This document shows positions 6,024-23,706 of a DNA stretch of 64,000 nucleotides, one piece after another (position 1 is the first letter of the stretch; every line of letters begins with the position of its first letter). The DNA is from Methanothrix sp. (GTDB lineage: Archaea; Halobacteriota; Methanosarcinia; Methanotrichales; Methanotrichaceae), in contig OY821645.1 of NCBI GenBank assembly GCA_963682135.1, positions 2,272,001-2,336,000 on the forward strand, written 5' to 3'. Made by a program: the position numbers and the translations under genes. Under the pieces are notes generated by a model. It searched no databases, had not been told where the DNA came from, and saw only the letters and a list, made by a program, of their open reading frames with translations.

Positions 6024-9000
6024 ATGTCATATCGCAATAAGGCGATAGCTTTAGTAATGCTTTTATCGCTGGTTTACCTGCTGGCGGGATTGTCGCTGGG
6101 TGCAGTCGCAGCGCCGCCCAGCCTCACGATAAACCAGCTCGTAACCTCTGAACAGACTGTGACCCTTAAAGCTCCTTCAGGAGATTACTACTACCAATGG
6201 ACCGCTGATACTGGCGGCGCTACCATTGGTCAGGCGACGACGCAGAGTTTTTCGTTTAAAGCTCCCCTGGTAACTCAGGATGAGGGCTCGAAGGCGGTCA
6301 CAATCTCGCTATACATAAGAACCAAAGAAGGAGGTTGTGTCAACCAAACGAGCACCACGATCAATGTCTATTCCCTGCCGGTTTGCGGCATAAGCGGACC
6401 CATATCAGTTGGTCCCTATGAGACTGCCACATACAGTTATTCGGGTGGAACCAGCGGCAAAACGACATTCGTGTGGAATGTTGACGGCAAGAATATCGAT
6501 GGAGCCACCGGGCCAAGTGTTGCCATAGATTGGACCAAATACAGTCTTGTCAATCACACCATCGGCATGACATTGACCAAGGATTACTCTGATGTGGCCC
6601 CCGGTTCAACCAATCCGTTCCGCAGCATAAGCTGTACTTTCCAGACAAATGTGACTTACACCACCGGGATGCAGGTAACCAAGACCCCCTCGGCAGCTTT
6701 TGCAGCGGTAGGCCAGTCAGTTATCTATACCTACACGGTCCAAAATACAGGGACAATAGGCATAAACTCACTGACACTGAGCGATGACAAGCTTGGCACT
6801 CTTACGCCTGCTGCCAAGACGATCCTGCCAGGAGCATCTACAACTGCAACTGCGACCTATATCATAAAAGAGAGCGATCTGCCAGGACCTCTGACCAATA
6901 CAGTAACCGTATCTGGTGTCGAGGACAGAACCAACAAGCCGGTCAGTGCCAAAGCTAATGCTACCGTGGCTCTGACCTATAACGCAGCCTTAAATCTGAC
7001 CAAAGTGCCCTCCTCCGCCACCGCCAAGGTGGGAGATACGGTGACCTACAAGTTCACGGTTACAAATACCGGAAACGTCACAATAAAGGGCTTGAACCTG
7101 ACGGACGATAAGCTGGGAACCATAAAGACCGACAAGACTGAACTTGCTCCGGGAGCTGTTGCAACAGCTTCGGCAACCCATGTCGTATTGGAAAGCGATC
7201 TGCCCGGACCTCTGACCAACGTGGCCACCATAGAGGGCACAGATATCCAAGATCAACCGGTTACGGCGACGGCCACAGCATCGATTGCGCTGACCTACAC
7301 ATCCGGTCTGGCTGTGACTAAGAAGCCATCCTCCAATACTGCAAAAATTGGTGATACTGTAACTTACCAGTTCAGCGTAACGAACAACGGTACGGTCACC
7401 ATAAATGGATTGGCGCTCAATGATGACAAGCTGGGAATCATCACTCTGGACAAGGCATCTCTGCCACCAGGCGAGACCGCCACAGGATCGGCAACGCACA
7501 CCATCATCGAGACCGACCTGCCCGGCCCTCTGACCAATATCGCCACGGCCACAGGCACGGACAGCCAGGGAGTGGCAGTCACAGGCCAAGCAACCGCCGC
7601 GGTCCAGCTTACTTACACTTCCACTTTGCAGGTGACCAAGACTCCATCCACCACAAAGGCAAACGTGGGAGAGACCATAACCTACCAATTCCAGGTTAAG
7701 AACACTGGATCAGTCACTATCAATGCACTGGCTCTGAACGACGATAAGCTTGGGGGCGTCACTCTGGACAGGGAGTCCCTTCTGCCTGGCGAGAGTGCCA
7801 ACGGTACGGCAACACATGTCGTTGTAGAAGGCGATTTGCCCGGACCTCTGACCAATGTCGCCACAGCCACGGGAACAGACCGCCTGGGTACTACGGTTAC
7901 AACAACGGCTACGGCTACAGTCCAGCTTACCTATACCGCTGCTCTGCAGGTGACCAAGATTCCATCTGCGAACACGGCGGCAATCGGTGAGACTGTAACC
8001 TACCAGTACTCCATCGTGAACACTGGAAACGTAACCGTAAATGCTCTGACCCTGACGGATGACAAGCTCGGCGACATAACCCTCAATACCGCCCAGCTGG
8101 CTCCCGGCGGGACAGCCACGGGATCAGCGACGCACACCATCGTCGAGAAGGACCTGCCCGGACCTCTGACCAACATTGCAACGGCTAAAGCAACTGACAG
8201 CCAGAATAAGCCGGTTACAGCAACGGCAACGGCGACGGTCCAGCTTACCTACACGTCCAGCATGAGCGTGACCAAGGTGCCTTCAAGCACAACGGCCGGC
8301 GTGGGAGAACCGGTAACATACACCTACACCGTCAGTAACACGGGCACTATTAACATCACCGGGTTGTCTCTAAGCGACGACAAACTCGGCAAGATAACCA
8401 TAGACAGGACTTCACTGGCCCCCGGAGAGAGCGCAATCGGCACTATTACTTATACTGTGCTCGAAGGCGATCTGCCCGGACCGCTCACCAATATCGTAAC
8501 CGCTACGGCTACGGATAGCTTGAAGCAGCCGATTACTGCAACGGCTACCGCAACAGTTGCTCTGACCTATACGGCCAGCCTGGACGTTGCCAAGGTGCCT
8601 TCAAGCACAACCGCCGTCGTAGGAGAACAGGTAACATACACCTACACCGTTACCAACACGGGTAACGTAACCCTCAAAGGTCTGGCTCTGAGCGACGACA
8701 AGATCGGCACCATAACACCAGCCAAGACCACCATCGCTTCGGGAGAGACAACTACCGCAACGGGAACATACACCGTGCTCGAAGGCGATCTGCCCGGACC
8801 GCTCACTAACGTAGTCACAGTAACGGCCACGGACAGCCAGAACCAGCCGGTCACAAATACGGCAACAGCTACGGTCACCCTGACCTATACGGCCAGCATG
8901 AGCGTGACCAAGGTGCCTTCAAGCACAACAGCCGGCGTAGGAGAACAGGTAACATACACCTACACCGTAAAGAACACGGGTAATGTAACCCTCAATGCTC

Positions 9001-11702
9001 TGGCTCTGAGCGATGACAAGATCGGAACTATAACTCCTGGCCAGACAACTCTCGCTTCGGGAGAGACCACTACTGCAACAGGCATATACACCGTGCTCGA
9101 AGGCGATCTGCCCGGACCGCTCACCAACATCGTCACAGTTTCGGCCACGGACAGCCAGAACCAGGCCGTAACAGCTACGCAGACAGCCACAGTCGCCCTG
9201 ACTTATACCACCAAACTGGAAGTTGCCAAGGTGGCGTCGACGGGAACTGCAGCCGTAGGATCAACCATAACCTATAGCTACACAGTCAAGAACTCCGGAA
9301 CGGTCACCATAAATGGGCTCTCCATGAATGATGACAAGCTCGGCGACATAACCCTGGACGCGAATACACTCGCACCGGGTGCAACTGCCAATGGAACGGC
9401 AACTCACCTCGTAGTGGAAGCCGATCTGCCTGGACCTATTATCAATACGGTAATTGTGACAGGTACAGACAGCCAGAACAATCCTGCCACGGCAACAGCA
9501 ACGGCCACGGTCCAGCTTACCTATACCGCTGCTCTGCAGGTGACCAAGACTCCATCATCCAACACTGCTGCTGTGGGTGAGACTGTAACCTACCAGTATT
9601 CCGTTGTGAACACTGGAAACGTAACCGTAAATGCTCTGACCCTGACAGATGACAAGCTCGGCGATATTACCATGAGTGCCGCCTCGCTGGCTCCGGGAGC
9701 GACGGCCACAGGATCAGCGACGCACACCATCGTCGAGACTGACCTGCCCGGACCTCTGACCAACACGGCAACGGCTAAAGCAACTGACAGCCAGAATAAG
9801 CCGGTTACAGCAACGGCAACGGCGACGGTAACCCTGACCTACACGGCCACGATGGAAGTTACCAAGTCTCCGTCCGCAGCTTCGGCCAGAGTAGGAGAGA
9901 GCATAACCTACACCTACACTGTAAGAAACACGGGAACAGTCTCCATCAAAGGACTGAAGTTGAGTGACGACAAGCTAAAGGAAATCAAAGTAGATAAAGA
10001 TACATTGGTACCGGGCGATACGGCTACCGGAACGGCTACCTACACTATCCTCGAGACGGATCTGCCAGGACCGTTGACAAATGTAGTCACGGTGACGGCA
10101 ACGGATAGCGCCGGGAAGGCAATGACGAGCGAAGCTCGGGCCTCTGTGGAATTAACCTATTCTGCAAGCATGGAGATCGTCAAGACGCCATCCTCCACCA
10201 CGGCCAAAGTGGGAGATACCGTAACCTACTCCTATACAGTGAGGAACACAGGAGAAGTAACTCTCAATGGTCTGGCGCTCACCGACGACAAGCTTGGCGC
10301 TATCAAGATCAACGCCAATACGCTGGCTGCCGGCGAAACGGCGACGGGCACATCAACGCACATCGTAGTTGAGGGCGATCTGCCCGGACCTTTGACCAAC
10401 ATCGTCACAGGTACGGCTACGGACACCCAGGGACAGCCGATTACCGCCACGGCAACAGCAACGGTCGCATTGACCTACACAGCCGCCCTGAACGTTACCA
10501 AGGAGCCATCTGCCAAAACCGCAGCCATCGGTGACACGGTAACCTACAGGTTCACTGTGAAGAACACAGGAAGCGTTACGGTTAACGGTCTGACCCTGAC
10601 GGATGACAAGCTAGGCACCATAAATCCACAACAGGCCACACTTGCACCGGGTGAGACCACGACCGCCTCGATGGATCACATAGTTGTCGAGTCGGATCTG
10701 CCCAGCCCCTTAACCAACGTGGTTACCGCTGCGGCCAATGACATCCTGGGGCAGCCGGTCACATCTACCGCCACTGCTACTGTAGCTCTGACCTACACGG
10801 CAACTGTAGAGATGACAAAGGTTGCATCTCCCACTTCAGCAAAGGTGGGTGAGAAGGTAACTTACACCTACACCATAAGGAATAGCGGAAAGGTCACAAT
10901 CAGCGAACTGGTACTGACGGACGATAAGCTGGGTAGCGTTACTCTGGGCCAAAGATCGGTAGCACCAGGAGGAACGGTAACCGGAAGTGCAACTTACACC
11001 ATCGACGTGAAAGATGTACCGGGACCCATAATCAACACCGCACTACTTGCGGGCAAGGATCCGGCAGGCGGTAGCGTCAGCACCAGGGCCACGGCAACCG
11101 TGACCATAACCAGGGATGCCATTACTCCGACGGTGACATGCGTTGCAGCCAACAGCGACGGCACTTTCACCGCATTCTTTGGCTACAACAATCCCAACAG
11201 CTATGCAGTCACCATAGAGGTAGGAAAGGATAACCAGTTCACGCCACCCCCAGACAGCCGGGGACAGCCCACCACCTTTGAACCGGGAAGCCAGACAGCC
11301 GTCTTTACGGTCGATTCCAAGGGCGAATCTCTAGTATGGCATCTGGAGGGTACCATTGCAGAAGCCAACAAGAACTCAGGCGGATGCTCCATGGCTTCTT
11401 GCGCCTTGGACGGGCCGACTGCCCTCTGCCAGAATAAGGAGGAGACTTACAGCTACACTGCAAAAGAGGATGCAAAGTTCAAGCATAACTACGACTGGTC
11501 CATGGATGACAAACCCCTGGGCTCCGGCAAGAGCATCACCATCTCCGGCAGCAAATTCGAGATGGGAGAGCATAAGCTCAAGCTGAAGGTCAGCAGGAAT
11601 TACAGAGAAAAAGCCTGGTCGAGTGCAGAGTGCAGCATGGCTGTAAAGGTCATACCCGAACCATCCGCGGACATATCCATGGACGAGGAGGGAGGTGACT
11701 AA
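6024..11702 (+). CDS. large secreted/cell-surface protein with 14 tandem ~106-aa DUF11-like Ig-fold repeats
   Basis: Signal peptide; 14 copies of VTKxPS..AxVGxTVTYTYTVxNTGxV...L.DDKLG...DLPGPLTN; GGAGG RBS. Confidence 0.9.
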   Translation: MSYRNKAIALVMLLSLVYLLAGLSLGAVAAPPSLTINQLVTSEQTVTLKAPSGDYYYQWTADTGGATIGQATTQSFSFKAPLVTQDEGSKAVTISLYIRTKEGGCVNQTSTTINVYSLPVCGISGPISVGPYETATYSYSGGTSGKTTFVWNVDGKNIDGATGPSVAIDWTKYSLVNHTIGMTLTKDYSDVAPGSTNPFRSISCTFQTNVTYTTGMQVTKTPSAAFAAVGQSVIYTYTVQNTGTIGINSLTLSDDKLGTLTPAAKTILPGASTTATATYIIKESDLPGPLTNTVTVSGVEDRTNKPVSAKANATVALTYNAALNLTKVPSSATAKVGDTVTYKFTVTNTGNVTIKGLNLTDDKLGTIKTDKTELAPGAVATASATHVVLESDLPGPLTNVATIEGTDIQDQPVTATATASIALTYTSGLAVTKKPSSNTAKIGDTVTYQFSVTNNGTVTINGLALNDDKLGIITLDKASLPPGETATGSATHTIIETDLPGPLTNIATATGTDSQGVAVTGQATAAVQLTYTSTLQVTKTPSTTKANVGETITYQFQVKNTGSVTINALALNDDKLGGVTLDRESLLPGESANGTATHVVVEGDLPGPLTNVATATGTDRLGTTVTTTATATVQLTYTAALQVTKIPSANTAAIGETVTYQYSIVNTGNVTVNALTLTDDKLGDITLNTAQLAPGGTATGSATHTIVEKDLPGPLTNIATAKATDSQNKPVTATATATVQLTYTSSMSVTKVPSSTTAGVGEPVTYTYTVSNTGTINITGLSLSDDKLGKITIDRTSLAPGESAIGTITYTVLEGDLPGPLTNIVTATATDSLKQPITATATATVALTYTASLDVAKVPSSTTAVVGEQVTYTYTVTNTGNVTLKGLALSDDKIGTITPAKTTIASGETTTATGTYTVLEGDLPGPLTNVVTVTATDSQNQPVTNTATATVTLTYTASMSVTKVPSSTTAGVGEQVTYTYTVKNTGNVTLNALALSDDKIGTITPGQTTLASGETTTATGIYTVLEGDLPGPLTNIVTVSATDSQNQAVTATQTATVALTYTTKLEVAKVASTGTAAVGSTITYSYTVKNSGTVTINGLSMNDDKLGDITLDANTLAPGATANGTATHLVVEADLPGPIINTVIVTGTDSQNNPATATATATVQLTYTAALQVTKTPSSNTAAVGETVTYQYSVVNTGNVTVNALTLTDDKLGDITMSAASLAPGATATGSATHTIVETDLPGPLTNTATAKATDSQNKPVTATATATVTLTYTATMEVTKSPSAASARVGESITYTYTVRNTGTVSIKGLKLSDDKLKEIKVDKDTLVPGDTATGTATYTILETDLPGPLTNVVTVTATDSAGKAMTSEARASVELTYSASMEIVKTPSSTTAKVGDTVTYSYTVRNTGEVTLNGLALTDDKLGAIKINANTLAAGETATGTSTHIVVEGDLPGPLTNIVTGTATDTQGQPITATATATVALTYTAALNVTKEPSAKTAAIGDTVTYRFTVKNTGSVTVNGLTLTDDKLGTINPQQATLAPGETTTASMDHIVVESDLPSPLTNVVTAAANDILGQPVTSTATATVALTYTATVEMTKVASPTSAKVGEKVTYTYTIRNSGKVTISELVLTDDKLGSVTLGQRSVAPGGTVTGSATYTIDVKDVPGPIINTALLAGKDPAGGSVSTRATATVTITRDAITPTVTCVAANSDGTFTAFFGYNNPNSYAVTIEVGKDNQFTPPPDSRGQPTTFEPGSQTAVFTVDSKGESLVWHLEGTIAEANKNSGGCSMASCALDGPTALCQNKEETYSYTAKEDAKFKHNYDWSMDDKPLGSGKSITISGSKFEMGEHKLKLKVSRNYREKAWSSAECSMAVKVIPEPSADISMDEEGGD
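6650..11110 (+). repeat. 14 x ~318-bp intragenic tandem repeat
   Basis: DDK(L/I) motif recurs about every 106 codons; units 5/10 and 7/8 are nearly identical in nucleotide sequence. Confidence 0.9.
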
Positions 11703-12051
11703 GAAGCTGAGAGTATTCTTCATGCACCTGGTGGCTGCTCCGCCCCAGGTGTAACCATTTTTATTAATTTTATGCACTAAATAAATATAAATTTTTAATC
11801 TGCATTAAATCCTATCCGGAAAAAAGATACTGCCGCCGGATGACGAGCCGTCATTGGCTTCCAGGTTTCAATCCTTGTTTTTGTGGAACTCACCCACGGA
11901 GCTCAAGGGGCCGGATTATCCGATCAATATTATCGCGTTTCAATCCTTGTTTTTGTGGAACTCGCCCCCGGAGTTCATGCAGATTCGTGCAGAAGAGGCG
12001 CACCGTCCGGTTTCCCATGGAAAACCACATAAATCATAATCAGGAGGCGAC

Positions 12052-13377
12052 CTATTCACCTCCCCCGGATGGCCTTTTCTGGCCGGGTTTTGTTATAGAA
12101 ATGGCTCCAAGCTCACGCATAAGAGCATTCTTCCTGCTGCCCTCTTTCAGGTGATAAAAGGCGTCCACAATTGCAGCTACTCTATCCGTCAATTGCTCAT
12201 CCTGAAATGAAGGTGCCTGGCAGGACTTATCCTGACTTGCTCCTCTCGATCTGCATTCACCTTCCTGATACAGCTCCTGGTTGATAAGAAGATGATGAAT
12301 GAGACAGATAAGCTTCCTGGCTACAGCAATAGTGGCTACATTTGGCTCCTTCTTTTTGACCAACCTCTGGAAGAACCTGGAAAGCCGTGTATTTTTCATT
12401 CTTCCGATGGTCTTTGCAGCCTGAACCAGCATAACTCTAATGTACTTGGAACCCTTCTTTGTAATTCCGCATTTTTTCTTTTTGCCCGCAGATTCGCTTT
12501 CTCCAGGATTGAGGCCGCACCATTTAGCGAGTTGGTCAGGTGTCTGAAAATCACGGTAATTTCCAATTTCAGACAATATGGCCGATGCGGATACGAATCC
12601 AATTCCTGGAATTGACATGACGATGGCCAGGTCTTTGCTCTTCTGCTGAATCTTTTTCAGGACCTCATGGCTCAGCTTTTCTATTTTGGATTCGAGATTA
12701 TCAATGAATTCCAGGGCATCTATTAAGAGCATTCTGTTTGTATCATCAAGACTTCTTTCAAGTGCTACCCTAATTTCGTCTTGCTTTTTCCTTATTTTTC
12801 CGGATGGGATGCCTTTCAAGATCTTCTCGATGGACTTCTTTTTTGCCAGACCGTCCAAAATATATCTGCCGGATTTGCAGAATATGTCGTCCATGCAAGA
12901 ACTGAGTTTGATCCCGCATGATGAAAGGTATTTGTGTATCCGATTCCGGAACTGAGTTCGTGTCTTGACATATCCGGACCTGGCTCGAGTTAGAGTCCTG
13001 AGATCTCGGTCTTCATTGGTAAATACCCTAGAGCGCTTGATTTGATTGTTCAGGCAAAGAGATGCAATCCGCTTTGAGTCTTTTGAATCAGATTTGTCGT
13101 TGGGAATAGTCTTTATCTGCAACGGATTGGCAACGATTGTATCTATGGTTTTGCTCAATGCATCATAGATCGGTATCCAATAGACTCCAGTAGCCTCAAA
13201 TGCCACCTGTTCGCATTTGTTGGCTACCAGCCATTTGCGAAATTTCCTAAGTTCAGTTTTCGTTGTCCCAAAATCCATTCGAATCGGTTGAAAATCATCG
13301 CCTGTTATTGTTGCCACGATCAAATCTTTATGGACATCTGCACCGCAAACTCTATCTCTTCGTTTTTTCATATACAT
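12052..13377 (-). CDS. IS110-family (DEDD) recombinase/transposase
   Basis: GADVHKD, FEATGVYW, KSDSKDS (DEDD RuvC-like) and SIPGIG...GLNPGESESAGK (Tnp domain). Start likely at MYMKKRR (13377/13371) rather than the ORF-track GTG at 13533. Confidence 0.95.
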   Translation of the reverse strand: MYMKKRRDRVCGADVHKDLIVATITGDDFQPIRMDFGTTKTELRKFRKWLVANKCEQVAFEATGVYWIPIYDALSKTIDTIVANPLQIKTIPNDKSDSKDSKRIASLCLNNQIKRSRVFTNEDRDLRTLTRARSGYVKTRTQFRNRIHKYLSSCGIKLSSCMDDIFCKSGRYILDGLAKKKSIEKILKGIPSGKIRKKQDEIRVALERSLDDTNRMLLIDALEFIDNLESKIEKLSHEVLKKIQQKSKDLAIVMSIPGIGFVSASAILSEIGNYRDFQTPDQLAKWCGLNPGESESAGKKKKCGITKKGSKYIRVMLVQAAKTIGRMKNTRLSRFFQRLVKKKEPNVATIAVARKLICLIHHLLINQELYQEGECRSRGASQDKSCQAPSFQDEQLTDRVAAIVDAFYHLKEGSRKNALMRELGAISITKPGQKRPSGGGE

Positions 13378-13604
13378 TTCTGCCTGGTATGGGCAGATGA
13401 TGTTTCCCTGATATGAGATAATTTCCCATACGCGTTCTATGACGCAGTCCCGTATTCGGGGGATCTTGGCTCGTTTCAATCGCGGGATCAGCCGTCCCAT
13501 AAACTTGTCAGCCTTCACTGCCCATAACCACATTTAACGTGAACGGATTACAATATGTGGTTTTCCATCCGTCACGTGTGAGCCTCTGCCTGGGGCGCAT
13601 GGGC
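13378..13604 (-). ncRNA. putative bridge/seek RNA region of IS110 copy 1
   Basis: ~230-nt non-coding region upstream of the recombinase containing GTTTCAATC (13473-13481, first 9 nt of the repeat on +) and TTTCCCAT (13422-13429, element end junction); boundaries unknown. Confidence 0.6.
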
Positions 13605-14305
13605 GTTTCAATCCTTGTTTTTGTGGAACTCGCCCTCGGAGGATACCGATTTCAGTTATATCAAGTGTTTCACAAAGAAGTTTCAATCCTTGTTTTTGTG
13701 GAACTCGCCCTCGGAGTTTCTGCTATCCTGGCCGTCGCCGGGTAGTTCCTGAGTTTCAATCCTTGTTTTTGTGGAACTCGCCCTCGGAGATGTCTATCCT
13801 CATTCCGGTCCTACGAGCAAAGTCTTGTTTCAATCCTTGTTTTTGTGGAACTCGCCCTCGGAGGCAGAAGATGAAAAGATAGAGTACCGGATGAACGAGT
13901 TTCAATCCTTGTTTTTGTGGAACTCGCCCTCGGAGCAAACTACGGTCGATGCTATCAAGGCCAAGACTGAGTTTCAATCCTTGTTTTTGTGGAACTCGCC
14001 CTCGGAGCCAGGATGAAGCAACTTGACCTTTCCAGCTTCAAAAGGTTTCAATCCTTGTTTTTGTGGAACTCGCCCTCGGAGTCATTTAAGCCACCGCCTC
14101 TGTCCACTCATAGTTCAGTTTCAATCCTTGTTTTTGTGGAACTCGCCCTCGGAGGCCAAGATTACCCTCAAGGATGCAGCAGAGGTGGGTTTCAATCCTT
14201 GTTTTTGTGGAACTCGCCCTCGGAGGGACTGGACAATCAAGGGAAGCGGTGCCGTCACCGCCAGTTTCCCATGGAAAACCACATAAATCATAATCAGGAG
14301 GCGAC

Positions 14306-15631
14306 CTATTCACCTCCCCCGGATGGCCTTTTCTGGCCGGGTTTTGTTATAGAAATGGCTCCAAGCTCACGCATAAGAGCATTCTTCCTGCTGCCCTCTT
14401 TCAGGTGATAAAAGGCGTCCACAATTGCAGCTACTCTATCCGTCAATTGCTCATCCTGAAATGAAGGTGCCTGGCAGGACTTATCCTGACTTGCTCCTCT
14501 CGATCTGCATTCACCTTCCTGATACAGCTCCTGGTTGATAAGAAGATGATGAATGAGACAGATAAGCTTCCTGGCTACAGCAATAGTGGCTACATTTGGC
14601 TCCTTCTTTTTGACCAACCTCTGGAAGAACCTGGAAAGCCGTGTATTTTTCATTCTTCCGATGGTCTTTGCAGCCTGAACCAGCATAACTCTAATGTACT
14701 TGGAACCCTTCTTTGTAATTCCGCATTTTTTCTTTTTGCCCGCAGATTCGCTTTCTCCAGGATTGAGGCCGCACCATTTAGCGAGTTGGTCAGGTGTCTG
14801 AAAATCACGGTAATTTCCAATTTCAGACAATATGGCCGATGCGGATACGAATCCAATTCCTGGAATTGACATGACGATGGCCAGGTCTTTGCTCTTCTGC
14901 TGAATCTTTTTCAGGACCTCATGGCTCAGCTTTTCTATTTTGGATTCGAGATTATCAATGAATTCCAGGGCATCTATTAAGAGCATTCTGTTTGTATCAT
15001 CAAGACTTCTTTCAAGTGCTACCCTAATTTCGTCTTGCTTTTTCCTTATTTTTCCGGATGGGATGCCTTTCAAGATCTTCTCGATGGACTTCTTTTTTGC
15101 CAGACCGTCCAAAATATATCTGCCGGATTTGCAGAATATGTCGTCCATGCAAGAACTGAGTTTGATCCCGCATGATGAAAGGTATTTGTGTATCCGATTC
15201 CGGAACTGAGTTCGTGTCTTGACATATCCGGACCTGGCTCGAGTTAGAGTCCTGAGATCTCGGTCTTCATTGGTAAATACCCTAGAGCGCTTGATTTGAT
15301 TGTTCAGGCAAAGAGATGCAATCCGCTTTGAGTCTTTTGAATCAGATTTGTCGTTGGGAATAGTCTTTATCTGCAACGGATTGGCAACGATTGTATCTAT
15401 GGTTTTGCTCAATGCATCATAGATCGGTATCCAATAGACTCCAGTAGCCTCAAATGCCACCTGTTCGCATTTGTTGGCTACCAGCCATTTGCGAAATTTC
15501 CTAAGTTCAGTTTTCGTTGTCCCAAAATCCATTCGAATCGGTTGAAAATCATCGCCTGTTATTGTTGCCACGATCAAATCTTTATGGACATCTGCACCGC
15601 AAACTCTATCTCTTCGTTTTTTCATATACAT
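14306..15631 (-). CDS. IS110-family (DEDD) recombinase/transposase
   Basis: Translation identical to copy 1. Confidence 0.95.
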   Translation of the reverse strand: MYMKKRRDRVCGADVHKDLIVATITGDDFQPIRMDFGTTKTELRKFRKWLVANKCEQVAFEATGVYWIPIYDALSKTIDTIVANPLQIKTIPNDKSDSKDSKRIASLCLNNQIKRSRVFTNEDRDLRTLTRARSGYVKTRTQFRNRIHKYLSSCGIKLSSCMDDIFCKSGRYILDGLAKKKSIEKILKGIPSGKIRKKQDEIRVALERSLDDTNRMLLIDALEFIDNLESKIEKLSHEVLKKIQQKSKDLAIVMSIPGIGFVSASAILSEIGNYRDFQTPDQLAKWCGLNPGESESAGKKKKCGITKKGSKYIRVMLVQAAKTIGRMKNTRLSRFFQRLVKKKEPNVATIAVARKLICLIHHLLINQELYQEGECRSRGASQDKSCQAPSFQDEQLTDRVAAIVDAFYHLKEGSRKNALMRELGAISITKPGQKRPSGGGE

Positions 15632-15858
15632 TTCTGCCTGGTATGGGCAGATGATGTTTCCCTGATATGAGATAATTTCCCATACGCGTTCTATGACGCA
15701 GTCCCGTATTCGGGGGATCTTGGCTCGTTTCAATCGCGGGATCAGCCGTCCCATAAACTTGTCAGCCTTCACTGCCCATAACCACATTTAACGTGAACGG
15801 ATTACAATATGTGGTTTTCCATCCGTCACGTGTGAGCCTCTGCCTGGGGCGCATGGGC
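15632..15858 (-). ncRNA. putative bridge/seek RNA region of IS110 copy 2
   Basis: Same as copy 1; GTTTCAATC at 15727-15735. Confidence 0.6.
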
Positions 15859-16189
15859 GTTTCAATCCTTGTTTTTGTGGAACTCGCCCTCGGAGATTGA
15901 ACGATAATGTCACGGATGACAGTGGAAATGGTAAGTTTCAATCCTTGTTTTTGTGGAACTCGCCCTCGGAGTTCGGGGCGATATACTGGAGCTTTCCGGG
16001 TCGGAGGGTTTCAATCCTTGTTTTTGTGGAACTCGCCCTCGGAGCCTGGAACGGTCCGGCCAGTGCGGTGTCTGAGCTGTGTTTCAATCCTTGTTTTTGT
16101 GGAACTCGCCCTCGGAGAGGGAACATTTCGTTGAAGCCGACAAATTGATTGAGTTTCAATCCTTGTTTTTGTGGAACTCGCCCTCGGAG

Positions 16190-16500
16190 AGCGGCTTTTT
16201 TTCGTCCTTTTCCCTGTTTCTCATCGTCAAACCGGCCTTTTCTCACCCTCCTTAAATCATGAGTAGAATTTATTAGAGGGCTTATAAATTCATTCCGGCA
16301 GGTGGGCCAAAAAATAGGCTTCCTGCCAAAAAACAGATAATGCATACCTATTTCTGTTTTGCATATGCACCGTGACTTTTGTAAACCTATTTCTCATCTG
16401 CAAATATCCTCTTGGTAGAAAAAGGTTTTTATGGAAAGGCTTCCATAAAACATACTCAATGTGCGAGAGTTCGAATCCAGTGAATTACTCCATGCGCAAG
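16190..16500 (-). promoter_or_regulatory. CRISPR leader
   Basis: Non-coding, relatively AT-rich stretch between cas6 and the non-degenerate end of the array; TTTATAA TATA-like on - strand near 16282-16288. Confidence 0.7.
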
Positions 16501-16541
16501 ATTTTCTTCGCAGATGACTCGACTCTGATCTCAATATATTA

Positions 16542-17225
16542 TTAGCCTTTGTTTTCCGCAAGCTTCAGCCCAACAACCGCCCCGTAACCTCTGGAGACAG
16601 ACTTGCCCAGCCCCAGGAGGTCTGGAATGGCGAAGGTTGTGGTGAACTCGCCTCGTATTCCCGTTACCTTTGTTCCCTTCAGCAGGCAGATCTCGTCCTG
16701 CATCCTGCCAACCTCCAGCCGAATGTGCTCTTTGGCCACGTAGCCCAGCCCCTTGGAGGCGGATAGGATGTTGCCCACCAGTATTCTTCTCAGCAGATCT
16801 CTTCTTTCCTCTCTGTTTGCATTTATGTATTTGGGATAGTTTTCCTGGCTCAGCGCCAACCAGGGCGTGGCGAAACTGTAGCTGTGAATCACCTCAGAGC
16901 AGCCGAACTCCTCACTCTTTAGGGTAATGCCGCGCTCCATGATGCTGTATTTGCTATCGCCCAATTTGATCTCATCGAATTTGTCGTAGATCTCCTTCAG
17001 GACATCTGCCCCCTCGTTGATGCCCAGCACGAGGGGACTATCTTCCAGCATCTTGTACTGGATGAGCGGATACTTGTAGATCAGCTTGTCTGTCACATGC
17101 TGGTGTAGCAGTGCATGCTCATTGAAGCTGGTGGCAAAGAAGCCGCGCAGTTTGGCGGCGTCCCCGTGCATGGGCGCGTCCGAGTGCAGGGTGAGGCGGA
17201 GGATTTTGAGGATCATGGTCGTCAA
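16542..17225 (-). CDS. cas6: CRISPR-associated endoribonuclease Cas6 (Cas6b-like)
   Basis: LRGFF..LLHQH..YKYPLIQYK and C-terminal G-loop GLGKSVSRGYG. Confidence 0.92.
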   Translation of the reverse strand: MTTMILKILRLTLHSDAPMHGDAAKLRGFFATSFNEHALLHQHVTDKLIYKYPLIQYKMLEDSPLVLGINEGADVLKEIYDKFDEIKLGDSKYSIMERGITLKSEEFGCSEVIHSYSFATPWLALSQENYPKYINANREERRDLLRRILVGNILSASKGLGYVAKEHIRLEVGRMQDEICLLKGTKVTGIRGEFTTTFAIPDLLGLGKSVSRGYGAVVGLKLAENKG

Positions 17226-17240
17226 GGATTTTCGTTTCGT

Positions 17241-17486
17241 CTAAACTTCGGCATTTGTTTCAATGGCAATCGTACGTGCCACTGAACCACAACTTTCAAC
17301 AGGCACTTCTTCGCCGCGGGCAATCATGCAAGCTACGAAGCCTTCAATGGCCTCCCTTGCCATCACCAGCGCCTCTTCAATCGTTCGCCCGAATGTCAGA
17401 CAACCTGGGAGAGATGGTACAATCACCGTGTAAGTTCCATCTTCCTCTTTTCGGAGCAGAACTTCGTAACGCAATGTCTCCATCAT
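17241..17486 (-). CDS. HicB-family antitoxin (short, no DNA-binding domain)
   Basis: EEDGTYTVIVPSLPGCLTFGRTIEEAL..AREAI. Confidence 0.9.
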   Translation of the reverse strand: MMETLRYEVLLRKEEDGTYTVIVPSLPGCLTFGRTIEEALVMAREAIEGFVACMIARGEEVPVESCGSVARTIAIETNAEV

Positions 17487-20780: not shown

Positions 20781-21809
20781 TCAAAACGCTATTGGCTTTA
20801 TGGCTATGCCGGTAGCTGCTGCCAATCCTTCAATTGGGAAACCGGCCCCTTCTTTGCAGAACTTAATTCTGTCGTCCACGCAAATCTCAATATCCTTGAT
20901 TGAGCCCTTCTCAGCAGCAAGTTTATTGACCAGCTCCGATATCTCCAGCTGGTAATCTATGGTGTCACGAATATTCTCATGAGGCATCTCGGTTACCAGT
21001 TTCAGCATCTTATCCAGATCCCCGATGTGATAACTCTCTTTGCTGTAATTCACCTTAAGGAGCAACCTGGGAACCTGTCCTGCTTTAGATCTGGAAATCA
21101 GGCTCTTGGTTCCATTCCAGATGCCATCCAGCAAAAGTTTTACATCATCTTCTGAGAGACCGGTGTGCTTAGCAGCGTTCTCATTTATTATACCATAGAA
21201 TGATATTAGTGAATATGGCAGAAAATCTTCTTCTCTGAACGTTGCTCTTGTAGATTTATCATCAGATGCAAAAGCTCCTTTACCCCTAAAATGCTTCATC
21301 GAGACACGATGAAGAGATCGACCGATCTTGAACTGTACTGGTCCCGTAAAGGTCAAAGATCCTTTTTCATCTTTTTCTTTATTGGTATCTTTATCGTTTT
21401 CAGTTTTTTTTCCGGGCTTTACTTTAATCTCCAAAGGTATTGTAGCACCAAATAATCTAACATCCAAGCAATTAGCTAAAATTCTATCAGATATAATTTT
21501 TCTTTGTTGTTCAAATGATAATTCTTTGATATCTACAGTTTCATCTTTTAAGAAGTCCATTGCTCTTTTCTTTGCTGTTTGCATATTGCCGCTATCATCC
21601 TTTATTTCTCGAATAAAGATCTCTTTGCCCTTAAAGTCATACAGAAAATCTCGAATAGTTCTCTTTAATCGGACATCTGTTACAATATTTACACCAGTTT
21701 CCTCGTCCATCCTAGGCTTGTTTTCATCCAGAGGATCCCCATTTGGATTTCCATCTCTTATGTCGTAGATGAAAATAATCTCTGACCTGTTCTTTATAGT
21801 TTCGCTCAT
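20781..21809 (-). CDS. cas7: type I-B Cas7/Csh2
   Basis: NPNGDPLDENKPRMD..VTDVRLKRTIRD; DVRLFGA; TGPVQF. Confidence 0.95.
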   Translation of the reverse strand: MSETIKNRSEIIFIYDIRDGNPNGDPLDENKPRMDEETGVNIVTDVRLKRTIRDFLYDFKGKEIFIREIKDDSGNMQTAKKRAMDFLKDETVDIKELSFEQQRKIISDRILANCLDVRLFGATIPLEIKVKPGKKTENDKDTNKEKDEKGSLTFTGPVQFKIGRSLHRVSMKHFRGKGAFASDDKSTRATFREEDFLPYSLISFYGIINENAAKHTGLSEDDVKLLLDGIWNGTKSLISRSKAGQVPRLLLKVNYSKESYHIGDLDKMLKLVTEMPHENIRDTIDYQLEISELVNKLAAEKGSIKDIEICVDDRIKFCKEGAGFPIEGLAAATGIAIKPIAF

Positions 21810-23706
21810 TCTTGTGTCTCCCCTTCAATCTCTGGCTCATCTTCTGTTGAATTCTTGAACAACTTATGCAAATCCATTCCCAAAACAAAATAGAAGCTTA
21901 GCTCGTCATCTCCTTCTTTCCAATTTATTCCAGACGAGACAAAGTGATTTGCAATGATCTCTTCCAGTTGCCGATAATAATTCTTGTCGTACTCTTCCAG
22001 CTTAATTTGAATTTTTGGAAGGAGTCTCTTGATCAGTGCTTCATTCATCTTCAAGCCATGTAATTTATTGCGAAATGGAGTTGCATTTTTGTCCCTCCAC
22101 TGTATGTTAAGGAGCTTCTGAGTCAATACCCCTTCCAAAAAGGTCGCCTTCTTAGAATCGCTATTGAAGAACGCCTTATTTGCTTCGAAGAACCTCTCAA
22201 TACGTAGCTCTAATGGGAGGCTTTCCAGCTCTTCGATGCGAAGAACCTCACGTTCCTGTTCATTCATGTCTTTCATCTCCGCGTTCTTTGCTTTGAAAAG
22301 AATTAGCTTCTCTATGTAGTGCAAGAGCAAGAAGCCATTCAATGAAGTTATCTTAGTAGAATAACCCTTTATGAACGCCTCTCTTACCTTACTCATTATA
22401 AAATCTATCAACAAATAATAGCTGATTTGATCTCCAACAAATATCTTGTCAACCATTTCCAAGAATATTTTATCGAAAGTTCTATTTTTAGATTCGGATG
22501 GGAAGAATCGTCTCAAAACTCCAAAATTAAAAACTAATTGGTGGTTTTCCCTCTGACCTTCGCCTAATATTAAATCATTATAAATTTTGAATATCTCATC
22601 CACTTTTTCTTTGGCTTTGAAAAGTGCTCTTAGTCTTGATGGAAAAATTCCCTCAATTAAAAGGAGGATTCTATATGATGATTGCTCCTTCTTATAAAAT
22701 ATCAAGCTGTTGCTAAAGAAATCTTTTTCATCTTTGACAGCATCACAGCATCAATGATCTTATACTCGTCAGAAGTTATCATGTTCTTATCATCACGATT
22801 TAGTTTTAGCTCCCGTTTTTGTTCCTTCTTACCCAGGATGCTCAATACCTCTTTAAGGAGCTTTTTATCATCTCCTTTAAACGTTATTTTTGGCACGAGG
22901 AGATATCTGAAGCCGTAGAAGCTAAAGTCAAGGTTTTCTTCGATGTACTTCTTTCCAACTTCCAGACGCGTGGCACAATCGAAACATACTGGTGTATTCT
23001 TCCAGGATTCATTGACATCAAATCCACCTGCAATAAATCCAGGCTTATCAAAGGTGTGGAAAGTCCAGGGAATAGCGAAGCCATATACTTCATCTTTGAC
23101 CCCTTTGCAGACTGAGCAGGCAGCATTTTTTCCCCGCGATTCTCCATGAGTCTTCTTAAGAAAATACTTGTCCTTACCCATTCGAAGCAAGATCTTTTCA
23201 AAAATCGGACATTTGCTAAGATAAGAATAGTCTTCGCCATTTTCAAAACCCAGAGTGATAATGGCGTTATCTTTCGAGTCTTTTTCGGAGTATTCCTCTT
23301 GTAGTCCTGCCAAAATTTTATCTCTCTGATCATTGATTGCGATTTTCATCTTTTTGAGGATCTCCTTTTCTTCCTCAGAAATATCATAGCTATCATAATT
23401 CTCGAACCATTTTAGGAATCTATTCTGGAAGGTCTTTTCTAAATTGCCCGCCAATTTGCTCGTGGGTGTCGCGTCAGTGCCATTTGGAGCACCTTTTTTA
23501 TATAAATATAAATTAAAATCTGTCTTAAACTCGTCTCGTATAACACGGCTAAAAGAATACTCCCCGTCCTTTTCGCATAATAATACTAATAATACCCATT
23601 TATATTTTCCATTGCTATTGGGATTCTCGATATATGTGGAAAGCGAATCTACTCCCACACTATTCTTTTGGATGTAGTCCCCGATTTTGCTTACCGCTTC
23701 AATCAC
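21806..23706 (-). pseudogene. cas8b: type I-B Cas8b/Csh1, frameshifted into two ORFs (22702-23706 and 21806-22705)
   Basis: Position upstream of cas7; CSVC..FHTFDKPGF..PVCFDC and C-terminal FLEGVL..YFVLG; tandem ACAGCATC x2 at 22737-22752 shifts the frame. Confidence 0.88.

Follow-up and report, generated by a model that had tools for sequence, protein, structure and literature searches.

A spacer-sized segment behind a CRISPR repeat in Methanothrix is probably the conserved left end of an IS110-family element with a putative bridge RNA

Introduction

The insertion sequence (IS) IS621 of the IS110 group has a DEDD recombinase with a Transposase_20 domain, and its long left end upstream of the gene folds into guide loops (PMC11208158; available part of PMC11208160). 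According to that part of PMC11208160, the left guide reads in the same sense as the left target and the core, and the right guide is complementary to the core and the right target. IS621 inserts at a shared core without target duplication and prefers repeated genomic sequences. Here, we describe an element that resembles IS621 in these respects. It lies twice inside a CRISPR array of Methanothrix sp. (GenBank assembly GCA_963682135.1, contig OY821645.1, positions 2,272,001 to 2,336,000 of the forward strand; this stretch of 64,000 nucleotides (nt) is called the window). In both copies, a segment of 36 nt with the size of a spacer stands directly behind a CRISPR repeat. Judging from sequence comparison, we put at about 80% the probability that this 36-mer, besides being a conserved cis element, belongs to the transcribed RNA and forms the outermost left end of the element, from the core to the inverted-repeat arm.

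The element also differs from IS621. Its host is archaeal, its core lies within AAA and not CT, and its target is the 3' end of a CRISPR repeat and not a repetitive extragenic palindromic (REP) sequence. It has a perfect 15-bp subterminal inverted repeat with a 37-nt left extension, and its similarity to IS621 amounts to 29 bits. The seekRNA elements of the IS1111 group (IS4321/IS5075 and ISEc11) are similar in their long near-perfect inverted repeats, asymmetric extensions and RNA-guided targets. In the available text of PMC11187229, their non-coding region lies downstream with extensions of approximately 7 and 3 bp, whereas it lies upstream here, with extensions of approximately 37 and 2 nt. 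ISPpu10, a REP-targeting IS110 element, offers parallels in its state-dependent expression, its circle-junction promoter and the 5' bridge-RNA structures that act on expression. As far as the accessible part of that preprint (10.64898/2026.03.19.712850) describes, its integrated junction is a terminator that blocks read-through, whereas the present element lies in sense orientation inside a presumably transcribed array and no terminator was identified.

As far as homing to arrays is concerned, the closest parallel in function is a family of Tn7-like transposons. Minimal Tn7-like elements of cyanobacteria home to arrays in a fixed orientation and with several copies per genome, as is seen here. 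In the portion of PMC11837452 available, a TnsD/TniQ protein reads the repeat and these elements insert into the spacer; here an RNA guide would read the repeat and the insertion lies exactly at the repeat–spacer boundary. Cbp1 binding sites have been described inside a Sulfolobus IS110-family element, which is not repeat targeting (PMC10883916). No IS110-family element that targets CRISPR repeats was reported in the literature searched, which included PMC11208160, PMC11187229, 10.1101/2024.06.21.599552 and 10.64898/2026.10.21.760802; the supplementary target tables of PMC11208160 and PMC11187229 and ISfinder may list one. CRISPR RNA (crRNA) of type I-B systems, as covered in the available part of Richter et al. 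2012 (PMC3479195), is a further point of comparison. An RNA from the Cas6b site would likewise consist of a AUUGAAAC tag and 35–36 nt of fixed sequence, but here no repeat follows downstream, the sequence is structured and does not vary, and its "protospacers" are always flanked by the repeat-like GAAAC.

Results

The CRISPR array (11865–16189, - strand) contains 16 repeats of 37 nt (CTCCGAGGGCGAGTTCCACAAAAACAAGGATTGAAAC on the - strand) and is split by two IS copies. On the + strand the repeat reads GTTTCAATCC...CTCGGAG, its end in the - strand reading is ATTGAAAC, and the spacers measure 34–39 nt. The two repeats at the low-coordinate end are degenerate, and cas genes lie on the - strand beyond 16542; the array is therefore considered to be read on the - strand from approximately 16190. 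The presumed leader (16190–16541, - strand) extends from the first repeat to cas6b and was assigned by its position and the degenerate repeats at the far end. IS copy A (12010–13604, - strand) is 1595 bp long when an ambiguous 5-nt GAAAC is counted in, and copy B (14264–15858, - strand) is 100% identical to it. Each copy has a full-length spacer (36 and 38 nt) on one side and the next repeat on the other. The recombinase gene of both copies lies on the - strand, the same orientation as the array.

The original prediction stated that each IS copy presents 36 nt directly behind a complete repeat (13569–13604 and 15823–15858), that this length falls within the 34–39-nt spacer range, that the other end carries only a few nucleotides and that the IS is co-oriented with the leader. 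The coordinates and the measured spacers agree with all of this. The 15-bp subterminal inverted repeat has its left-end arm at 13554–13568 (15808–15822 in copy B) and its right-end arm at 12017–12031 (14271–14285 in copy B). It is perfect, and no other perfect pair of this length was found in the region. The 36-mer of copy A (13569–13604, - strand), which is identical to that of copy B (15823–15858, - strand), fills the gap between the inverted-repeat arm and the repeat. At the opposite IS end, just GTTTCCC (2 nt past the core) separates the inverted-repeat arm from the full-length spacer. The 36-mer consists of the donor right arm (C)GCCCATG, the hairpin SL0 (13579–13599) and the 5' arm of SL1; a CACGTGACGG stretch accompanies the hairpin. 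The donor right arm is the palindromic partner of the right-end terminus CATGGG.

The IS ends are ambiguous by 4–5 nt, with GTTTC (GAAAC in the transcription direction) at both junctions. The shared crossover core TTTC (GAAA on the - strand) lies at 13606–13609 at the left-end junction, with its counterpart at 12011–12014. Measured from the core, the extension is 37 nt on the left end versus 2 nt on the right end. The genome consists of one 3.04-Mb contig, and it contains a third, identical copy outside the arrays as well as one relative with 67% identity. The original prediction had asked whether copies outside arrays retain the 36 nt, and the third copy keeps the segment. In the gene direction, its left flank reads ...GGATATGAAA/C-GCCCATG... 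and its right flank reads ...CCATGGGAAA/TCTAATT...; these flanks share only TTTC (GAAA) with the element. Judged from this copy, the first base of the "intact" repeat beside the 36-mer is a C derived from the element. The array junctions read GAAAC on both sides, which indicates that the upstream repeat is regenerated by the insertion.

The recombinase gene (12055–13371, - strand) encodes 439 amino acids from the ATG at 13371 and carries the DEDD_Tnp_IS110 and Transposase_20 domains. A longer open reading frame (ORF) with its start at 13533 overlaps the region of the non-coding RNA. The left-end non-coding region with a bridge-RNA-like structure lies at 13372–13604 on the - strand (15626–15858 in copy B); it makes up 233 nt upstream of the gene, compared with approximately 45 nt after the stop codon. 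The original prediction had placed a bridge RNA and a recombinase behind the 36-mer, and the locus is indeed of the IS110 family with a bridge-RNA-like left end. PF01548 (DEDD/RuvC-like, N-terminal) matched the recombinase with an E value of 3.1e-21 (76 bits, cut-off 29), and PF02371 (Transposase_20, C-terminal) with 3.5e-24. The match to the IS621 transposase structure 8wt6 is distant but significant (E 4.6e-6, 29 bits). The GID, EATG, KxDxxD and ESG motifs, which we take to be the catalytic motifs, align with IS621. ESAG of the present recombinase stands opposite YESG of IS621, and its serine is presumably the nucleophile. ESAG is kept in 72 of the 73 listed gene copies, and the remaining one has QSAD. 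The sequence shared at different insertion sites is GAAAC, GAAA or AAA, and target-site duplication is absent. From these data, the element very probably is an archaeal member of the IS110 family, with a DEDD recombinase and a bridge RNA encoded in its left end. Among the features of the IS1111 subgroup, the inverted repeat (7–17 bp in that subgroup) was found (15 bp, perfect), and the long downstream non-coding region and the extensions of approximately 7 and 3 bp (here approximately 37 and 2 nt) were not. The layout is that of the IS110 group, but the long, subterminal inverted repeat is a feature shared with the IS1111 group.

The recombinase protein search returned 16 loci with 62–97% identity in Methanotrichaceae, Methanothrix and Methanosarcinales assemblies, and matches to the left end were present in 57 of 105 genomes of the same family. 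The segment is kept by 76–97%-related elements from genomes and metagenomes of Methanotrichaceae. Upstream of the left end, the flank ends in (A)TTGAAAC or a near variant in each case, and the right end reads ...TTTTCCATGGGAAA. Among 64 genome-derived junctions, 41 have a 35-nt segment, 13 a 36-nt, 9 a 31-nt and one a 37-nt segment. A scan of metagenome contigs with a 20-nt anchor inside the left end served as an unbiased sample and gave at least 127 anchor hits at no fewer than 120 loci, from which 89 distinct junctions with a flank of at least 28 nt were obtained; two hits without a recognisable start and one with a short flank were left out, and duplicates were merged. Of these junctions, 67 have a 35-nt segment and 18 a 36-nt one; two have 34 nt and one has 32 nt, and the single 31-nt value comes from a mis-set start.

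Many of the left-end hits cover the first 45 nt alone and belong to miniature elements of approximately 84 nt. These consist of the left-end segment of 35–36 nt, a 9-bp inverted repeat that encloses a loop of 24 nt, and a final GGGAAAC. They are read as non-autonomous derivatives that keep just the two ends, which indicates that the segment is needed in cis, or at least is always carried. Miniature elements were observed behind (A)TTGAAAC in L044, L048, L052–L060, L066, L067, L070 and L071 and in metagenome loci. They occur in arrays and elsewhere; in L207, for example, the repeat spacing is 158 versus 73. No miniature of the CRISPR-targeting lineage was found in the window's own genome; a sister-type miniature is located near G000:C1:2839615.

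Twenty distinct left ends were aligned and folded jointly with RNAalifold. The hairpin within the 36-mer (TGAGCC...GGCTCA) showed CG to UA changes on both sides in five sequences, and in the 31-nt lineages it differs chiefly by a shorter loop. The 5' arm of the second stem-loop is the last 9 nt of the 36-mer, and its loop contains the inverted-repeat arm; its stem showed AU to GC changes in six sequences. The consensus fold also has a long closing stem and an internal (target) loop that is closed by GGCU/AGCC, with UA to CG changes in five sequences. The fold of the single left end (z = -1.75) is uninformative alone.

Candidate guides were assigned in this fold. The candidate left target guide GAUUGAAAC (13473–13481, - strand; 15727–15735 in copy B) is identical to the last 9 nt of the repeat, and thus contains the crRNA tag AUUGAAAC. 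The candidate right target guide GACAAGUUUAU (13499–13509, - strand) has the complement AAACUUG, that is, the core and the first spacer bases. The candidate left donor guide AUGGGAAA (13422–13429, - strand) is identical to the right-end terminus ...CATGGGAAA; it is invariant, and the donor ends are constant across elements. The 3' strand of the target loop was taken as the left guide and the 5' strand (AAGUUU here) as the right guide. In three sister lineages, both strands covary with the flanks. The 3' strand GAUUGAAAC goes with flanks ending in ATTGAAAC, CCCUAAAC goes with ...CCCTAAAC, and GGCUAAAAC goes with ...GGGGCTAAAAC. The complements of the 5' strand are AAAC(T/C)TG, AAAGG(G/A)TG and AAAA(T/A)TAA, respectively, which are the core plus the right flank of each lineage. 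From this covariation and the homology to IS621, we infer that the recombinase is guided by RNA.

The target spectrum agrees with the candidate guide. Sixty-seven of the 89 listed metagenome junctions end exactly in ATTGAAAC. Forty-five lie behind repeats of four families (12, 23, 6 and 4), where the family consensus was derived from the same flanks and array status was checked independently by a periodicity of 72–76 bp in each family. The others comprise 42 junctions at non-array sites, one inside the guide region of another copy and one right-end/left-end junction. In the genome-derived set, obtained with the same exact anchor, 10 of 30 junctions lie in arrays and 20 outside. The guide corresponds to the last nine bases of the window repeat and to the last eight of the other three families. 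In this genome, ATTGAAAC occurs 132 times, against 92 times expected from its composition, and GATTGAAAC occurs 39 times; 16 of the latter are array repeats, three are the elements' own guide regions and three are putative 23S rRNA loci. CRISPR arrays are the richest local supply of ATTGAAAC, as REP sequences are for IS621. Taken with the sequence evidence above, there is a high probability that the element is a bridge-RNA element homing to the CRISPR tag, which together with its miniature derivatives has entered at least four repeat families in Methanotrichaceae.

A role of the spacer side in the choice of site found no support: the two occupied junctions (CGG.. and TGG..) are not the best matches to TTG, from the complement of the right guide, among the 16 repeat–spacer junctions of this array. 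Family-wide, there is a weak preference for T after GAAAC. Three identical loci (G000:C1:827065, 2880936 and 2994475) carry a perfect GGATTGAAAC target and are unoccupied. We take these thrice-repeated loci to be 23S rRNA genes and not another IS.

In L007 (2269–5328), L086 and L122, a copy was inserted exactly behind the GATTGAAAC of the guide-coding region of another copy. Such an insertion leaves a 5'-truncated copy that starts at nt 128 of the left end. Insertions of this nested or self type recur, since the guide DNA of the element is itself among its targets. The metagenome contig L166 (3197 nt) contains two 100% identical 1596-bp units head to tail, joined as ...CCATGGGAAAC/GCCCATG..., with GAAAC at either end of the contig. 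It could represent a circle or a tandem dimer of the element. The original prediction had linked the role of the 36 nt to their presence in the circle junction, and the joined form does include the segment.

A sister lineage with a 31-nt segment and the guide GGCUAAAAC was seen in at least six contigs (L039, L072–L078, handle G003). Each time, it sits behind the same dispersed sequence of approximately 25 nt, ...CTACACTTTCTTCTGGGGCTAAAAC, followed by CTAATGGTTTT, and this repeated target is not an array. In L008 and L028, one element has an upstream array of the GTTGCAGCGAAC...GGGATTGAAAC family and a downstream repeat of the ...GTTCCACGAAAACAAGGATTGAAAC family. Two arrays may abut here, or elements from two arrays may have recombined.

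The 36-mer was compared with phages, plasmids and viral contigs and gave no match (best E 0.4), so that the viral or plasmid source for which the original prediction had proposed a search was not found. The element was also compared with 1398 array spacers; no full-length match was obtained, and the best hit was partial, covering 21 nt of a T-rich stretch. These spacers have a modal length of 37 nt (427), with 356 of 36 nt and 124 of 35 nt.

Assembled contigs from RNA libraries run from a CRISPR repeat or a ATTGAAAC flank into the left end (X8 and X7). On the repeat side, record 26 of X8 has 26 aligned letters plus 11 more; in record 27, 8 letters are aligned and 22 further ones belong to another repeat family. 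In X7, records 23 and 24 pass from an unclassified ATTGAAAC flank into the left end; the word share of the metatranscriptome runs is 0.05. These records are contigs of ambiguous strand in which DNA carry-over is possible, and record 27 falls just below the 31-letter rule, so they are weakly compatible with read-through. In X7, word depth is higher over the left-end core than over the coding sequence, a difference that cannot be used as a measure of RNA level. Two DNA-like runs contain the element at 100% identity, plus the flank of the third copy and miniature derivatives.

Discussion

In this study, anatomy, conservation, guide–target covariation and target spectrum were documented for an element that splits a CRISPR array, and we believe that the 36-mer belongs to the element. 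In the proposed mechanism, the target-loop strand GAUUGAAAC of the bridge RNA would read the repeat end, and the other strand would pair with AAAC and the first spacer bases. A crossover within the shared GAAA core would then join the repeat end to (C)GCCCATG and so regenerate the repeat. The target is asymmetric, so the orientation of the insertion is fixed and co-orientation with the leader is automatic.

Several observations weigh against this interpretation. In the CRISPR-targeting lineage, one position of the segment hairpin can be A, C or T, and no compensatory change goes with it. The left end matched no Rfam family at the gathering threshold, and the scan of the whole window gave one tRNA only. 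The donor loop is half assigned, its right donor guide being a discontiguous candidate. In addition, the usual length of 35–36 nt lies within the local spacer length range, and two or three sister lineages without CRISPR-repeat targets have 31-nt segments, so that the longer segment may be linked to a life in arrays. This comparison sets one CRISPR-targeting lineage against its sisters, so the difference in length is indistinguishable from chance. We infer that the spacer-like length is a coincidence. The original prediction had called the segment spacer-sized. The length is in range, but the meaning given to it found no support: most relatives have 35 nt, and sisters have 31 nt.

The first alternative concerns transcription. 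Where type I-B repeats measure 37 nt, Cas6b leaves a AUUGAAAC tag of 8 nt and the 3' ends are trimmed, according to the accessible part of PMC3479195. By analogy, cleavage by Cas6b at 8 nt from the end of the repeat would plausibly leave AUUGAAAC followed by element RNA; given array read-through, which is itself presumed, and this cut, such a tag-plus-left-end RNA is a reasonable expectation. This product is not required to explain the anatomy. A stronger proposal is that the element targets the sense strand of repeats in order to be transcribed from the leader. Cas6b would cut 8 nt upstream, and the bridge RNA and recombinase mRNA would be released with a defined 5' end, which would overcome the weak expression that integrated IS110 copies show. 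In favour of this proposal, the co-orientation is obligatory, and the upstream repeat is complete. In the parts available, PMC3479195 has Cas6b of type I-B leaving its 8-nt tag whatever follows, and PMC13626964 has integrated IS621 copies expressing the bridge RNA weakly. The X8 records 26 and 27, which run from a repeat into the left end, and the X7 records 23 and 24, which do so from an unclassified ATTGAAAC flank, give weak additional support. However, about half of the sites are outside arrays (42 of the 89 listed metagenome junctions and 20 of the 30 genome junctions), as is the third copy, and arrays are simply places where the motif is frequent, comparable to REP sequences in the case of other IS110 elements. 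Furthermore, a related element insulates itself from read-through, according to the available part of preprint 10.64898/2026.03.19.712850. We therefore regard selection for leader transcription as tentative and, on balance, unlikely.

A wider version would make the lineage and its miniatures specialised array parasites. Their guide would be set to the near-universal 8-nt crRNA tag, so that they invade any array ending in ATTGAAAC. The leader promoter and Cas6 would give a tag-bearing bridge RNA, the 35–36-nt segment, longer than the 31 nt of the non-CRISPR sister lineages, would be sized so that the processed 5' end is held like a crRNA, and the miniatures would form a pseudo spacer–repeat unit. 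This combination is speculative, and we consider it improbable.

It was also suggested in the original prediction that the segment could serve as a guide. In that case, an RNA of the tag and the 36-mer would be trimmed to crRNA size before Cascade or a type III complex takes it up, and it would then serve as a guide in autoregulation or as a decoy. Type III complexes mature their crRNAs by 3' trimming, and the genome has type III RAMP genes (three PF03787 matches). The 35–36 nt of the segment are within the spacer length range, and the lineages that do not target CRISPR repeats have 31 nt. In the miniatures, the segment is followed by a local hairpin and GGGAAAC, which has a crude likeness to a repeat. 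The type I-B system of Haloferax can do without the 3' handle, and its 3' ends undergo trimming (available part of PMC4326828), and trimming is also described in the part of PMC3479195 cited above. Against this, every copy, miniature and right-end/left-end junction has GAAAC directly upstream of the would-be protospacer, and GAAAC are the bases that flank genuine spacers. By the rules of self-discrimination, a type I system must read GAAAC as no protospacer adjacent motif, and the tag of a type III crRNA would pair with it as "self". The cas8b of the locus is frameshifted, and the segment is conserved in sequence and structure in lineages that are never in arrays. Moreover, any sequence behind a repeat would give such an RNA, so the boundary set by the inverted repeat has no bearing on trimming. 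We consider the pseudo-spacer reading unlikely; loading of the segment as a functional guide or decoy is very unlikely indeed.

Finally, the idea that the 36-mer is an old spacer picked up from an array and now carried along, also raised in the original prediction, has nothing in its favour except its length, which is inside the local 34–39-nt range, and its position beside a repeat, which is on one side only; it is rejected with near certainty, since the 36-mer is present in the non-array copy, is conserved at 31–37 nt in all relatives and miniature derivatives of many genomes and metagenomes (64 genome and 89 metagenome junctions), contains a conserved hairpin and stem arm, lacks a match in phages, plasmids or viral contigs, and never stands between two repeats among the 1398 spacers.

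With the 36-mer understood as a transposon end, some consequences can be considered. Each insertion strips the 5' tag from the spacer downstream. The AUUGAAAC tag is common to many type I and III systems. Homing to arrays by an RNA guide on repeats was not found in the literature searched; such homing has so far been described only for protein-guided Tn7-like elements, as covered in the available part of PMC11837452. The locus would be a natural case in which one RNA-guided system preys on the locus of another, and its lineages lend themselves to a natural test of how guides and targets covary in archaeal bridge recombinases. A testable question is whether transcription of the array and processing by Cas6 feed the guide RNA of a transposon. 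The data also indicate that conserved, spacer-sized segments embedded in arrays can be transposon ends and not spacers.

Other Features of the Locus

On the - strand from 16542, the genes are cas6b, a hicB-like gene, cas3, cas5, cas7, cas8b (two ORFs), cas4 and cas1, and the locus is of type I-B. The cas6b gene (16542–17225, - strand) has the Cas6b_N and Cas6b_C domains. A HicB-like antitoxin gene (17241–17486) lies between cas6b and cas3. The cas8b gene (Cas_TM1802; 21806–23706, - strand) is frameshifted into two ORFs, which span positions 1–323 and 334–601 of the Cas_TM1802 profile. An 8-bp tandem duplication (GATGCTGT, two units) near 22737–22752 coincides with this split.

Two or three more CRISPR arrays are present in the genome (G000:C1 approximately 69.9–76.4 kb, approximately 2949.7–2950.4 kb and the region of approximately 797–807 kb). 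They have other repeat families, all ending in ATTGAAAC, and are without insertions. The three RAMP-family genes (type III-like) are distant from the arrays. At 6024–11702 of the window, an ORF of 1892 amino acids contains tandem repeat units of 318 nt and may encode a surface protein with repeated domains.

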